A stretch of 64,000 bases of DNA from Bacilli bacterium. Lineage in GTDB: Bacteria > Bacillota_I > Bacilli_A > RF39 > UBA660. The notes under the pieces were generated by a model. The model did no database searches, was not told the origin of the DNA, and saw only the letters and a program-made list of their open reading frames with translations. The DNA lies in NCBI GenBank assembly GCA_900769695.1, contig CAAGHO010000048.1, positions 4,698 to 68,697 of the forward strand, written 5' to 3'. This document shows, in pieces, positions 59,928 through 63,802 of this stretch (positions within the stretch are counted from its first letter, which is position 1; each line of letters begins with the position of its first letter). The translations under genes and the position numbers were made by a program.

Positions 59928-61865
59928 ATGAATAACTTTACATTTTTAACTGATGAACAAATATTTGAAAATAATCAGTTAGATATTATAAGTAGATATG
60001 GTACAAAATGTGCTATAACTGATTTTTCTATTTTATTAGGTGGTTATGTTTCATCATATTATTATACTAGTGAAGGAAATACTAAAAAAGATAGAACTGG
60101 TTGGTGGTGGACAAAATCATGTGATGGGAATAATGACGCGCGCGTCGTTGAAAAGGATGGCCTTAGATGTTGGTTCGTTGTTTATAAACGCAGTGGTGGG
60201 GCTCGCCCAGCTTTACCTTACTCTTCAATCAAATCAATCTCCTCGAACGGAGTGAGAGGTGCCAATGGAATTAAGGAAATTGAATATGGCGAATATCCAC
60301 AAACAATTGTTGATGAACATTATTCTCGTGAACTAGAAAGAGCGTATAATAATAGAAGTTTAAGAACTACAGGCAAAAATTATACAACAGATTCAGTTAG
60401 ATACCAAAATACTGATACAAGTTTTAGAGCAAGAACTCATACTGAATATGAATATAATGGAAGTAAATATATCCGTTTTGTTGGTGATTTAAACTGTGAT
60501 GGAGAAGTCTTGTCTGATGGTAGAACAATAAAAACAGGTCAAGCATATTGGGTTCGTGTTGAACCAATAACTTGGCTAGTAGATGAAAGAGCAAATATAG
60601 CACTTTCAAAGAAAATAATTTTTTCTGGAGTACAATTTAAAAATCAAAGAGATTACAAAGGAGATTTTGATAGAACTGATATAAAACAATTTATGGATAA
60701 TTATTTCTCAAAAGAAATAGTAACTGACAGAGTATATTCACAAATTACATCAGTAGAACAAATTCAAAGTATAGAAGAAAAAGAACCGGTAAGAAAACAA
60801 AATCCTTATGGTTTCAATTTTGATGGAGTATCAGAAGAAGATATAATAAGAGGAGCAGTAGAAAGTAATATTTCAGTATTCTTACATGGTAGATCAAGTG
60901 AAGGTAAATCAGCAAGAGTAAAACAATTAGATCCAGATTGTGAAATAATATATATGAGAAATGCAACTCCGGATAGTTTAAATGGAAAAAGTGTTTATAA
61001 CGCTGCAACAGGAGAAATGATTGATGTACCACCAACATGGTATTCAAAAGTAAAAGAAAAATGTGAAGCTGAACCAGATAAAATTCATATTATATTCTTT
61101 GATGAACTTACAAATGCACTTCCTTCCATACAAGGTATGGCATTTAATATAGTATTAGATGGTGAAGTAAATGGTAAATGGAAGTTACCACCTAATGCAA
61201 GAATAGTTGCAGCAGGAAATGATTTAAATGATTCATTAGCTGCAAATCAAATGGCAGAACCATTATTCAACAGATTTGCTCACGTTTATATTAATACTAC
61301 AGTAGATAGTTGGTTAAAGTGGGCATCTACACCTAAAGAAAAATATGAGAGATTAGATTATAAAGAGGAAGAACCAGAGGCAAAAATTCATCCTTCAGTA
61401 TATGCTTACATAGCATATAAATCTTATAGTGGGCATGATGTCTTAAGAACTCCATATACAGGAGATAAACCAAATGCAGATCCAAGAAAATGGGAAATGG
61501 CATCTAAGTTACTCTATAAAACTAAACAACCAGAAATGTTAAGAGCATTGATAGGTGATGATTTAACAAGAGATTTTACAGCATTTGCAAGACAACAAGT
61601 AATAAGTGTTGAAGATGTAATTAATCATAATTATTCAAGTAGAGATTTAGAAATGGATGTATCACAAAAATTCGCAACAGCAGTTGGATTATCCTCTGTT
61701 GATGATGAGCATTTTGAAGTAGTAAGAGATTTTATGAAGCAAGTGGGTGCAGAACCAAGAGCTGCATTTGAATCTATGTGGACACATGGAGATGAGAGAA
61801 GATTAGAAAAACTTGCAGAAGTACAAATGGCAGATAGCTTATCACAAGGAGGAATAAGAAGATGA
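59928..61865 (+). CDS. Fusion protein: N-terminal lectin-like 'WWW...GARPAL' ligand-binding module plus C-terminal MoxR/AAA_5-like ATPase
   Basis: A GGTGA RBS precedes the ATG at 59928. The N-terminus reads FLTDEQIF...CAITDFSILLGGY...TGWWWTKS...GGARPAL. The AAA+ part has Walker A FLHGRSSEGKSARV, Walker B HIIFFDELTNA, and RIVAAGN...EPLFNRFAHVYI. Confidence 0.7.
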   Translation: MNNFTFLTDEQIFENNQLDIISRYGTKCAITDFSILLGGYVSSYYYTSEGNTKKDRTGWWWTKSCDGNNDARVVEKDGLRCWFVVYKRSGGARPALPYSSIKSISSNGVRGANGIKEIEYGEYPQTIVDEHYSRELERAYNNRSLRTTGKNYTTDSVRYQNTDTSFRARTHTEYEYNGSKYIRFVGDLNCDGEVLSDGRTIKTGQAYWVRVEPITWLVDERANIALSKKIIFSGVQFKNQRDYKGDFDRTDIKQFMDNYFSKEIVTDRVYSQITSVEQIQSIEEKEPVRKQNPYGFNFDGVSEEDIIRGAVESNISVFLHGRSSEGKSARVKQLDPDCEIIYMRNATPDSLNGKSVYNAATGEMIDVPPTWYSKVKEKCEAEPDKIHIIFFDELTNALPSIQGMAFNIVLDGEVNGKWKLPPNARIVAAGNDLNDSLAANQMAEPLFNRFAHVYINTTVDSWLKWASTPKEKYERLDYKEEEPEAKIHPSVYAYIAYKSYSGHDVLRTPYTGDKPNADPRKWEMASKLLYKTKQPEMLRALIGDDLTRDFTAFARQQVISVEDVINHNYSSRDLEMDVSQKFATAVGLSSVDDEHFEVVRDFMKQVGAEPRAAFESMWTHGDERRLEKLAEVQMADSLSQGGIRR

Positions 61866-62263
61866 ATAAAGAAAGATTAAATTTATTAGAAAATTATATT
61901 AAATCTGGAGTATCTCCATTATTGGTTCAAAACATACCTTCAAATTCTTTTAATAATTCAGTTATTATAAAATCAAATATTGATAGATCTGAATTAAATG
62001 GGCATTATGAAAATATAGATTTTTGTCCTCCACTTTGGTATAAAGAATTATTAGCTAAAAGTAAAACAAATCATGTTGTTTTAGTAATTGAAAATATAAA
62101 TGAAATCCCATTAGAAGAACAAACTAAATTTATTGAGATACTTAAATATAAAAAAGTTAGTACATTTGAATTACCTAAAAAATGTTTAGTTATTGTCACT
62201 TGTTCTGATTTAACTGCTAATAAAATAGATGAAGAAGTATATTCATTATTAGCACAAATTTAA
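61862..62263 (+). CDS. Small protein resembling a degenerate AAA+ core fragment (no Walker A)
   Basis: 133 aa. Its start overlaps the upstream stop (ATGA). HVVLVIENINEIPLEEQTKFIEILK and LVIVTCS resemble a Walker B / sensor region. Confidence 0.4.
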   Translation: MNKERLNLLENYIKSGVSPLLVQNIPSNSFNNSVIIKSNIDRSELNGHYENIDFCPPLWYKELLAKSKTNHVVLVIENINEIPLEEQTKFIEILKYKKVSTFELPKKCLVIVTCSDLTANKIDEEVYSLLAQI

Positions 62264-62272
62264 GGATAGCTT

Positions 62273-63766
62273 ATGAACGTAGAATCTATTAAAAGAAGAT
62301 TATTAGTTAAGTATCCTTTCTTTGGAAGTGTAGTAGCTAATTCTAATTTTATTGCTGAACCAGCAGTAGGAACAGCAGGAACAGATGGCAAAAACATTTA
62401 TTATAATCCCAACTTTATTGAATCCATCACAGATGATCAACAAACGTTTATTTTTGCACACGAAATATGTCATATAGCATTTGATCACATTTTCAGAAGT
62501 GAAGGTAAAGATAAAGATTTATGGAATATTGCAACTAATTCGGTTGTAAATGCTTTTCTAAAACAAGATGGATTACCTATAGTTGAAGGTGGCGTTGATA
62601 TTCCAGAGGCAATTAATTATGATGCAGAGGAAATGTACAAAAAGCTTTTAGAGGAAAAGAAACAACAGCAACAACAAAATGGACAGGGTAATGGTCAAGA
62701 TCAACAAGGTAGTCAACAACAAAGCAGTTCTAGCGGTGAAAATTCACAAGAACAAGATAAACAATCACAAGAGCAAAGTGGTGATGGATCAGGAGAAGAT
62801 TCACAGGAAGAAGAAAAACAACAAGATGTTGGACATGACACCCATTCTATGTGGGATAAAGCAATAGAAAAGAGGCATCAAGAAGAGCAATCACAATCTA
62901 ATTCAGAACAATCTGACGACAAGGATGAAGATAAACAAAGTTTGTTAGATAAATTAAGTAAAATGTTTGATAAGAAAAAAGAACAACAAGAAAAGCAACA
63001 ACAACCTGATGAAAACCAAAATAAAGAGCAAGAAAAGAAAAAGAATGAAGAAATTAAAAAGTTAACAGAATTAGGTGAAAAAGAAGCATTTAAACAGAAT
63101 AAAATAGAAAGAAAAAAACAACTAGAAGAATTAAGAAAAGCACTAGCTAGTCAATCACATGGTCATGGAAACACTACAAATAGTGAAAGAAGAAATATAA
63201 CTGACATCGGAACATCTGAACCTCTTATTGATTGGAGAAGATTATTAAAAGAAGCTGTAAAATATGATATTGATTGGTCATATCAAAATGCTGGAATAGA
63301 GGATGGTGTAGTAACTGCATATTTGGAGGAAATGCCAAGACCAGAGACAGAAATCGTTTTAGATACAAGTGGTTCTATAGATGAAACACTACTTAGAAAT
63401 TTTTTAAGAGAATGTAAAAATATATTACAAACATCTAAAGTTAAAGTTGGATGCTTTGATACGCAATTTTATGGTTTTACTGAAATTAAAGATGTATCTG
63501 ATATTGACAATTTGCCATTTTATGGTGGTGGTGGAACTAACTTTGATGTGGCTGTTAATGCATTTACAAGAAGGGTTGAAAATAAGATAATTTTTACTGA
63601 TGGAGATGCAAATATGCCAAATACACCAATAGATGCAATCTGGATAGTTTTTGGTGGTAAAAAAATTAATCCTAAAGGTGGTAAAGTAATTCATATAGAC
63701 AATGAACAACTTGAAAGACTATATAATTATCAAATTACTAATGAAGCAAAAGGAAGGTCAAGGTAA
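62273..63766 (+). CDS. Metallopeptidase-like (HExxH) N-domain plus Q/E/K-rich linker plus vWA-like C-domain (DUF2201-type partner of MoxR-like ATPases)
   Basis: FIFAHEICHIAFDH is the HExxH motif. A ~170-aa low-complexity QQQ/EEK linker follows. The C-terminal EIVLDTSGSIDE is a MIDAS-like DxSGS, followed by GGGTNFDVA and IIFTDGDA. Confidence 0.7.
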   Translation: MNVESIKRRLLVKYPFFGSVVANSNFIAEPAVGTAGTDGKNIYYNPNFIESITDDQQTFIFAHEICHIAFDHIFRSEGKDKDLWNIATNSVVNAFLKQDGLPIVEGGVDIPEAINYDAEEMYKKLLEEKKQQQQQNGQGNGQDQQGSQQQSSSSGENSQEQDKQSQEQSGDGSGEDSQEEEKQQDVGHDTHSMWDKAIEKRHQEEQSQSNSEQSDDKDEDKQSLLDKLSKMFDKKKEQQEKQQQPDENQNKEQEKKKNEEIKKLTELGEKEAFKQNKIERKKQLEELRKALASQSHGHGNTTNSERRNITDIGTSEPLIDWRRLLKEAVKYDIDWSYQNAGIEDGVVTAYLEEMPRPETEIVLDTSGSIDETLLRNFLRECKNILQTSKVKVGCFDTQFYGFTEIKDVSDIDNLPFYGGGGTNFDVAVNAFTRRVENKIIFTDGDANMPNTPIDAIWIVFGGKKINPKGGKVIHIDNEQLERLYNYQITNEAKGRSR

Positions 63767-63772
63767 AACAAA

Positions 63773-63802
63773 GATTTAGAAAAAAATTCTGAATCTTTTT
63801 TT
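63773..63802 (+). terminator. Rho-independent terminator of the AAA+/vWA operon
   Basis: The stem is gatttagaa/ttctgaatc with one mismatch and an A-rich loop, followed by T7. Confidence 0.55.

Follow-up and report, generated by a model that had tools for sequence, protein, structure and literature searches.

P1-P2-P3, a gut Bacilli cassette of a retroelement-diversified sensor-ATPase, an inactive ATPase core and a zincin-vWA protein: a candidate intracellular conflict module

Most targets of diversity-generating retroelements (DGRs) are surface or virion proteins, and the cytoplasmic NTPase-coupled targets that have been proposed as bacterial antigen sensors are described mainly in multicellular or uncultured lineages. 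What, then, is a domain with the marks of a DGR target doing on an intracellular ATPase in a gut bacterium? The question is raised by an operon of three genes, here called P1, P2 and P3, in a 64,000-nucleotide stretch of DNA (the window: contig CAAGHO010000048.1 of assembly GCA_900769695.1, positions 4,698 to 68,697) from the chromosome of a low-GC gut 'Bacilli bacterium' metagenome-assembled genome. Comparison with relatives from other assemblies points to a genuine DGR variable repeat in P1 and to a retroelement that is still complete elsewhere. On balance we think it probable, if only just, that the block represents the target-effector portion of a mobile DGR cassette, whose retroelement has decayed in this genome, and that it forms a DGR-tunable intracellular module of sensor, motor and protease that acts in biological conflicts.

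All features described here lie on the + strand, and the three open reading frames (ORFs) are co-oriented and tightly coupled, with a hairpin terminator at the end. In P1 (59928..61865, 645 aa) a hypervariable module at the N-terminus is joined to an AAA+ ATPase; P2 (61862..62263, 133 aa) is an inactive, miniaturised paralogue of the AAA+ alpha/beta core of P1; and P3 (62273..63766, 497 aa) consists of a zincin-like domain followed by a Q/E/K-rich linker and a vWA domain. The start of P1 is placed at the ATG at 59928, and not at an upstream TTG, because its homologues begin MNNFTF. The P1/P2 junction is AGATGAATAAA, an ATGA overlap, and the 9-nt gap between P2 and P3 holds an AAGGA ribosome-binding site. 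A probable intrinsic terminator follows P3 at about 63772..63803, where an AT-rich hairpin of 10-12 bp precedes a U-run (-12 kcal/mol, z = -4.2; one of 200 shuffled sequences folded equally well); our consensus scan missed it because that scan needs at least three G-C pairs. Promoter-like sites in the window were no commoner than in shuffled sequence, and no promoter is claimed. A preliminary description, made from the letters of the window alone, had given these gene coordinates, the overlap, the gap and a terminator at 63773, and had read the block as a sensor-like module on a MoxR-like AAA+ protein, a degenerate AAA fragment and a zincin-vWA partner. That anatomy is borne out, and the Walker A, Walker B, HExxH and metal ion-dependent adhesion site (MIDAS) motifs and the Q/E/K-rich linker were all located. 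P1, P2 and P3 have no membrane, signal or hydrophobic segment, and the system is therefore expected to be cytoplasmic.

The variable repeat of P1 and the fate of its retroelement

Dozens of P1 variants that are about 95% identical to the window protein differ from it chiefly at aa 72-92. Among 25 variants with at least 94% identity we count seven haplotypes of the variable repeat (VR), a patch of 75 nt at 60136..60210 that encodes P1 aa 70-94, and the per-site difference rate inside it is 11 times that in the rest of the protein; variants P0004 and P0015, for instance, differ at 13 of 21 patch residues and at 7 of 624 elsewhere. The variable codons have the form NNT, NNC or NNN, with invariant third positions and flanks. 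A search pattern in which the variable VR bases were replaced by A recovered a template repeat (TR) in two metagenome contigs, L045 and L046. This TR is 75 nt long, has the core GTTAACAAAAATGGTAATAGAAATTGG and reads ...GTT AAC AAA AAT GGT AAT AGA AAT TGG AAC AAT GTT AAT AAA CGC AAT GGT GGG GCT CGC CCAG; it sits between a bAvd-like gene and a full reverse transcriptase (RT) gene, and P1-P2-P3 come directly after. When seven VRs are compared with the TR, 92 positions disagree, and at 82 of them the template base is an adenine (binomial p = 2e-27); for the window VR against the TR of L046 the figure is 13 of 15. A phage contig, L048, has a TR of its own that matches its own VR. TR and VR agree exactly over their G+C-rich 3' end GGTGGGGCTCGCCCAG, a candidate initiation-of-mutagenic-homing (IMH) site beyond which the flanks part; a hairpin downstream of the VR was not significant (z = -0.16).

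The order avd-TR-RT-P1-P2-P3 is found in four loci (L040, L045, L046 and L048). In each of them a bAvd-like gene stands upstream of the TR, an assignment based on a PF22296 match (E = 1.6e-5) below the gathering score. The RT in the same position is intact in L040, L045 and L048 and is split by a group II intron in L046. In relatives with this upstream avd-TR-RT, about 13-15 P1 residues are rewritten by adenine mutagenesis. As far as such comparisons go, the window patch at 60136-60210 is a genuine DGR VR, and the diversification that had been suspected in the N-terminal module from its appearance is shown by the TR of its relatives and the adenine-specific mismatches.

Several peculiarities of individual copies were seen. 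The commonest VR haplotype, IVVSKSGDRSWFNVSKRSGGY, is carried by 19 of the 25 near-identical P1 variants (P0002-P0024) and stands apart from the rest through a pair of codons (R72 to I, A92 to Y) that hold no adenine in the L046 TR, a pattern that hints at a second TR variant in circulation. The intron of L046 (4190-6113) interrupts the DGR RT gene precisely in its YMDD codons; the inserted sequence opens with GTGCG and includes a gene for a 430-aa RT/maturase of its own, and its splicing would restore an uninterrupted RT sequence like that of the window. In L040 the P1 gene is short by about 96 nt, including most of the VR, at about 5059-5110, where GACGCGCGC is joined to TCCTCGAACGG, with avd and RT intact; either the gap is genuine and keeps the reading frame, or the assembly has collapsed at a hypervariable site.

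In the window the retroelement is reduced to an RT remnant at 59191..59850, which keeps the LGNQSSQ and YMDD motifs and the thumb and has lost about 121 N-terminal residues. Its match to RVT_1 spans positions 61-204 of 205 only, it matches phrog_1423 at 9e-58, tblastn with the intact 339-aa RT of L048 covers residues 122-338 only, and DNA homology to the L046 RT begins at window position 59218. The RT beside the operon is thus real, but it is a fragment, which had gone unnoticed, and the intact RT expected of a DGR cassette is absent from the window. No avd was found there, and no TR was found in the window, in the 21-kb contig L001 or within 8 kb on either side of three relatives. A first guess at the TR had no match among viral contigs, where a 16-nt anchor gave unrelated matches only, and a scan of genome contigs returned further copies of the target and no TR. 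With the RT truncated and TR and avd missing, the window VR is frozen at one fixed specificity, unless a second DGR elsewhere in the genome acts in trans; the two differences of this VR that do not fall at adenines fit drift since its last homing. Upstream of the remnant, at 58620-59165, a 181-aa protein is encoded whose N-terminus resembles a signal peptide and whose matches, to PHROG tail proteins, are all weak. The gene ends exactly where the RT homology begins, and the loss of avd, TR and the 5' part of the RT therefore coincides with the arrival of this gene or with a deletion junction (58620-59218).

Sensor, motor, inactive core and effector

The N-terminal module of P1 (59928..60722, aa 1-265) is predicted to be a beta-rich globular domain in which the VR-bearing end comes first. 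The AlphaFold2 (AF2) model of full-length P1 gives it predicted local distance difference test (pLDDT) values of mostly 80-95, and modelled alone it reaches a predicted template modelling score (pTM) of 0.74. For the same pairs of loci, identity is 59-88% in the module and 93-99% in the ATPase half, so that, by these alignments, the module evolves much faster. It had been called lectin-like, which overstates the case: there is weak DUF6273 similarity, in relatives only, and the fold search with the module gave nothing significant. Pfam DUF6273 is not matched by the window P1, and the family is matched by 5 of 49 P1 relatives, one of them above the gathering score, at model positions 103-169 of 172; in relative P0089 it is aa 23-97 that align with these positions. 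A C-type lectin fold was considered for the module and is unsupported by Foldseek.

The module also occurs apart from this ATPase. In proteins P0330 and P0372 it is fused, in single or triple copies, to ankyrin repeats in place of the ATPase. A stand-alone 329-aa copy follows P3 in L008 (12242-13231), a second full sensor-ATPase follows P3 in L053 (10853-12412), and L051 holds several stand-alone or split copies (1076-1921, 6190-6972 and 10677-11459). Such extra copies by the operon suggest multi-sensor arrays or decoys.

The ATPase of P1 (60834..61865, aa 303-645) belongs to the helix-2-insert clade of AAA+ proteins and ends in a helical C-terminal region. Its Walker A motif GRSSEGKS (60888-60911, aa 321), its Walker B motif IIFFDE (61086-61106), sensor 1 (AAGND) and the FNRF motif with the putative arginine finger R449 (61272-61274) are invariant across 49 P1 homologues. 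P1 aa 305-620 match phrog_1297, annotated 'ATPase' (2.7e-41), and when a profile of the family is compared by hhalign with the 344-aa ATPase of an N4-like phage, the alignment covers aa 308-611 with a probability of 99.3%. Foldseek of the AF2 model against PDB returned matches that include NorQ, CbbQ, MoxR CHU_0153, McrB and dynein AAA modules (probability 1.0, E about 1e-4), and phage 'dynein-related AAA' proteins were matched in BFVD. The model places a beta-hairpin (aa 354-367) between two helices at aa 348-381 and a second hairpin at about aa 412-420, before sensor 1 (pLDDT 56-87); these are the positions expected for the helix-2 insert and the pre-sensor-1 hairpin. Among the 49 relatives, five reach AAA_5, weakly (E >= 0.006). 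P1 itself has no direct sequence similarity to solved structures, and its family profile finds only weak NtrC (0.01) and McrB (0.37) matches among PDB sequences. The name MoxR-like, used in the preliminary description, is therefore kept at the level of the clade, where it is justified by the predicted structure and the vWA partnership and not by membership of a curated family, Pfam AAA_5 not being reached. Full-length homologues of P1 form 3395 clusters, with 731 representatives at E <= 1e-30.

P2 had been noticed as an AAA-like fragment that lacks Walker A, and BLASTP and hhalign agree with this: it matches P1 aa 363-453 (E = 1e-5), and in the profile-profile comparison its aa 6-133 pair with P1 aa 303-452 (97.4% probability, E = 1.6e-11). 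Walker A and the arginine finger are both missing, and EN stands at the position of the Walker B DE; in the copies compared this position reads EN, NN or PN, and none of the distant copies examined has DE. The helix-2-insert motif NGHYE...PPxWY is retained and the catalytic residues are not. From these sequences P2 is, we conclude, a catalytically dead, miniaturised paralogue of the ATPase core of P1 itself. No significant Pfam or NCBIfam match was found for P2, and PADLOC gave one match, which we regard as spurious (0.0085). The family comprises 404 clusters, nearly all of the 120 listed being exactly 133 aa long, and P2 is kept at 41-50% identity in distant operons, with its motifs conserved. 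Because the family is narrow, uniform in length and co-diverges with P1 in distant operons, P2 is best seen as a stable inactive module and not as a pseudogene.

P3 matches DUF2201_N (7e-33, 114.8 bits; cut-off 23.2) and DUF2201 (1e-12, 48.4 bits; cut-off 26.4), both above the gathering scores, and phrog_1314 over its full length (4e-66). Its zincin-like metallopeptidase domain occupies about aa 1-123, with the HExxH at 62459-62473 (aa 63) in the arrangement H63-E64-x-x-H67...H72. The linker (62642-63172, aa 124-300) is about 177 aa long and 50% Q/E/K, and the vWA domain (63353-63700, aa 361-476) has a complete MIDAS, made up of the DxSxS motif DTSGS (63362-63376, aa 364; D364, S366 and S368), T422 and D443. 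H63, H67, H72 and all five MIDAS residues are invariant, also in the homologue of an N4-like phage, in which the linker is not present. An identical P3 protein was found on four contigs of independent assemblies, and the P3 ORF of L045 is intact at 555 aa. Among close relatives the linker, rich in Q, E, K and S, is polymorphic in length and holds short internal direct repeats (protein totals of 463, 477, 478, 497, 519 and 555 aa). The P3 homologue of L006 (10340-11731) has HVICH for HExxH, the catalytic glutamate being replaced, and is otherwise 89% identical to the window P3; in L007, an independent Logan assembly, the homologue has the same length.

Distribution of the cassette and comparison with known systems

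The operon of the window is flanked on the left by glmS, a YlmH-like gene and a gene for a PBP5-type carboxypeptidase, and on the right by gatCAB and aspS. At least six unrelated chromosomal contexts hold the conserved triad, which can be followed down to about 42% identity. Its neighbours are SecA and an IS605 OrfB in L003, DDE transposases in L006, Tad-pilus and ribosomal protein genes in L008 and, at 42% identity, a two-component system in L053; the contig L046 also carries a Mob_Pre relaxase gene, and L048 is a temperate phage contig with the triad downstream of tail, holin and endolysin genes. The three genes thus stay together at unrelated sites, and close homologues lie outside morphogenesis and housekeeping operons, the cassette of L048 coming after the lysis genes; an absence of linkage or a setting in such operons would have spoken against the preliminary description. 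Copies without an RT are common in other genomes and their ORFs are equally intact; L003, L006, L008 and L053 have no adjacent DGR. At about 35% identity the sensor-ATPase has other downstream partners and no P2. A conserved 'fourth gene' after P3 was considered and rejected, as the genes at this place in L003 and L006 are unrelated and that in L008 is the stand-alone module copy.

The block had also been thought foreign to its host from its codon usage, a view that the counts contradict. G+C content at third codon positions (GC3) is 0.13, 0.06 and 0.15 for P1, P2 and P3, as against 0.137 +/- 0.024 in 35 host ORFs, and CGN codons make up 6 of the 61 arginine codons of the block, all six in the N-terminal module of P1, compared with 22% in the host. 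Host-like GC3 and arginine codons rule out codon usage as a mark of foreign origin.

DGRs on DUF6273 domains, DGR-linked MoxR-vWA ternary systems, ATPase-fused C-type lectin (CLec) targets in the Candidate Phyla Radiation (CPR) and the phage pair of MoxR and metallopeptidase-vWA proteins are all already known. The ternary systems (VMAP/iSTAND, Kaur et al. 2020, PMC7159879; Thiohalocapsa DGR 4/5/7, Dore et al. 2024, PMC10907252) resemble the cassette in being cytoplasmic, in having a DGR-diversified putative sensor and in carrying a peptidase on one component, and the iSTAND type has an inactive NTPase in third place, a parallel to P2 that is analogous only, as P2 is not a member. They differ in most particulars. 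What the DGR targets there is a C-terminal CLec domain, borne by the vWA protein or by a separate one, whereas here the VR lies in an N-terminal domain on the ATPase; their third component is VMAP, iSTAND, FtsH or a beta-propeller and here a 133-aa dead copy of the ATPase core; their peptidases are trypsin- or caspase-like, in contrast to the DUF2201_N zincin on the vWA protein; and their hosts are multicellular bacteria, whereas ours are unicellular gut Bacilli and their phages. Unlike theirs, the ATPase described here falls into a phage family, phrog_1297.

The pair of phrog_1297 and phrog_1314 proteins in N4-like, rV5-like and PA5oct-like phages is homologous to P1 aa 308-611 and to the whole of P3, with identical zinc and MIDAS residues; the phage ATPases, however, have no N-terminal variable module and no DGR. 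The P3 homologue of the N4-like phage examined is without the long linker, and the small genes between its ATPase and vWA genes are unrelated, with no counterpart of P2 among them. The DUF6273 DGR targets (tentaclins, Mtd-like; Baykov et al. 2023, PMC10743442; Faecalibacterium prophages, PMC11792537) share with P1 a VR at the end of a DUF6273-homologous segment, the WWxxS...G.RPAL motifs, the Avd-TR-RT order and the gut habitat. Beyond that segment they carry Ig-like or Fn3 domains, and they have been interpreted as receptor-binding proteins of the virion, whereas P1 runs on into an intracellular AAA+ ATPase and its relatives' Pfam match is weak or partial. The CLec-AAA targets of CPR bacteria (Paul et al. 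2017 via PMC10907252; UVR4/midasin class, Wu et al. 2018, PMC5758913) likewise join a variable domain and an AAA-type ATPase in one polypeptide; in what these sources give of them, their VR is C-terminal, they belong to other phyla and another RT clade, and neither a zincin-vWA partner nor an inactive AAA component is reported. NorQ/NorD and CbbQ/CbbO, which are among the best structural matches of the ATPase core and show the same partnership of an ATPase with a vWA/MIDAS protein, are housekeeping systems for metallo-enzyme maturation or Rubisco activation, with no variable domain, peptidase or mobile context and with undetectable sequence similarity. In the literature searched we did not find the combination seen here, of a VR domain N-terminal on a motor, a dead copy of that motor and a zincin-vWA effector, in unicellular gut Bacilli and temperate phages.

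A conflict role weighed against its alternatives

In other MoxR-vWA pairs a hexameric ATPase remodels its vWA/MIDAS partner and the protein held by it, often via charged linkers (PMC7159879), and we infer a mechanism for the cassette because those pairs work in this way. A ring of P1 would display the variable domains as intracellular receptors for an invader protein or another cytoplasmic ligand. Once a ligand is bound, ATP hydrolysis would serve to remodel P3, itself held by the vWA/MIDAS domain and the charged linker, and this remodelling would free or position the zincin for cleavage of a target. P2 would probably serve as an adaptor or regulator between the P1 ring and P3, and the outcome could be the exclusion of a competing phage or abortive infection.

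We favour a role in conflict because the cassette is carried by phages and mobile DNA, because it sets a fast-evolving sensor on a conserved engine, because distant members exchange partners, and because there are published precedents, DGR-diversified sensors coupled to MoxR-vWA and other NTPases having been proposed as conflict systems (PMC7159879, PMC10907252). The preliminary description had proposed a candidate sensing or conflict system too; the anatomy, the DGR and the linkage of the genes bear it out in part, while the role in conflict or defence would follow from these features and has no match in PADLOC.

A number of observations weigh against this interpretation. The DGR of the window is dead, and adaptive retargeting from this locus cannot occur. 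For the N-terminal module Foldseek found no significant match, neither a C-type lectin nor another solved structure; confidence in the ATPase part of the P1 model is moderate to low, and the window P1 has no Pfam match, the curated thresholds of AAA_5 and AAA_3 not being reached. To judge from the altered HVxxH sequence of L006, peptidase catalysis may not be essential everywhere. In PADLOC-DB 2.0, P1 and P3 have no match and only the RT fragment is hit, by generic RT models. Nor are the surroundings of the operon defence islands of the classical kind. It is in lytic phages (N4-like, rV5-like, PA5oct) that the pair of ATPase and DUF2201 proteins has its most widespread homologues, and for that pair a role in virion assembly has been proposed (Iyer et al. 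2021, PMC7824862). A more ambitious form of the conflict interpretation, that the cassette is a self-contained, retargetable recognition machine on temperate phages and mobile DNA of gut Bacilli, a programmable sensor-protease of unicellular bacteria that would resemble adaptive immunity or serve as a device for programmable degradation, seems to us possible and rather doubtful. In such a machine a DGR would rewrite the substrate-recognition domain seated on the AAA+ motor, and the motor, together with the inactive AAA protein as adaptor, would drive the tethered zincin.

A rival interpretation makes the cassette a retargetable tool of the phage or mobile element itself, for counter-defence or host takeover: the variable domain would recruit proteins of the host, for example those of defence or surface biogenesis, which the ATPase and zincin would then remodel or cleave. 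P1-P3 are cytoplasmic, the cassette is phage-borne in L048 and shares a contig with a relaxase gene in L046, and the ATPase and DUF2201 pair, widespread in lytic phages, stands there beside replication genes (RecD, ClpX-like). We nevertheless regard this alternative as unlikely, since many operons are chromosomal orphans with no phage genes near them and with intact ORFs and motifs, which fits a benefit to the cell. In L048, moreover, the cassette follows the lysis genes, a prophage position typical of accessory genes that benefit the lysogen.

It is improbable, in our estimation, that the block of this genome is a decaying remnant of an old mobile-element insertion, without function. Such a relic would explain the truncated RT with the loss of TR and avd, the drift suggested by the two non-adenine changes of the VR and the full amelioration of codon usage to that of the host. 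It would leave unexplained that decay has spared the three ORFs, every catalytic and metal-binding motif, the translational coupling and the terminator, that P3 is identical on four contigs of independent assemblies, and that other genomes commonly hold copies which lack the RT and are just as intact.

That the proteins are a chaperone and a maturation protease for virion assembly, as proposed for the jumbo-phage MoxR and metallopeptidase-vWA proteins and for the MoxR-vWA pair of Acidianus two-tailed virus, appears less probable still. Membership of phrog_1297 and phrog_1314 and the proposal of Iyer et al. 2021 (PMC7824862) speak for such a role, and one prophage does carry the operon. There, however, it stands after the holin and endolysin genes and outside the structural module, and most copies, that of the window included, have no phage structural genes within 8-10 kb. 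The lytic-phage homologues are without the N-terminal module and P2, and a hypervariable recognition domain is ill-suited to assembling a phage's own conserved parts. A surface location of P1, with the variable module as a receptor-binding or adhesion domain, is suggested by the weak DUF6273 similarity and by the DUF6273 DGR targets of gut Firmicute phages, whose VR lies at the C-terminal end and which are read as receptor-binding (tentaclins, Mtd-like; PMC10743442, PMC11792537), but we consider it very unlikely, as P1, P2 and P3 have neither signal peptide nor membrane segment, there are no Ig-like, Fn3 or tail-fibre domains, and the module is fused to an ATPase or, elsewhere, to ankyrin repeats.

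The DGR-tunable conflict module that we prefer lends itself to experiment. The family is compact, consisting of avd, TR, RT and three genes with the variable domain directly on the motor, and human-gut metagenomes contain it in abundance: its sequences fall into thousands of clusters, and a single 90% cluster has 818 member sequences. It offers natural matched sets, in which the DGR is live (L040, L045, L046 and L048), decayed (the window) or not adjacent (L003, L006, L008 and L053), and the existence of such versions of a small and abundant cassette makes the idea of a DGR-diversified intracellular sensor directly testable. Questions brought within reach are the ligand of such a receptor, the way in which a MoxR-like ring signals to a vWA-tethered protease and the role of the ATPase and DUF2201 pairs in lytic phages.

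Two minor features lie upstream of the operon. At the left edge of the island lies a gene for a P-loop kinase similar to Zeta-toxin/AAA_33 proteins (57902-58531; Pfam Zeta_toxin 5e-8). In this genome of about 25% G+C there are also two long poly-G tracts, G9 (58572-58580) and G10 (49248-49257). The G9 tract follows the terminator of the previous gene and lies directly upstream of a TATAAT box that precedes the 181-aa secreted-protein gene, and it could be a slipped-strand switch for phase variation; two further assemblies that were checked, L001 and L002, show no change of length.

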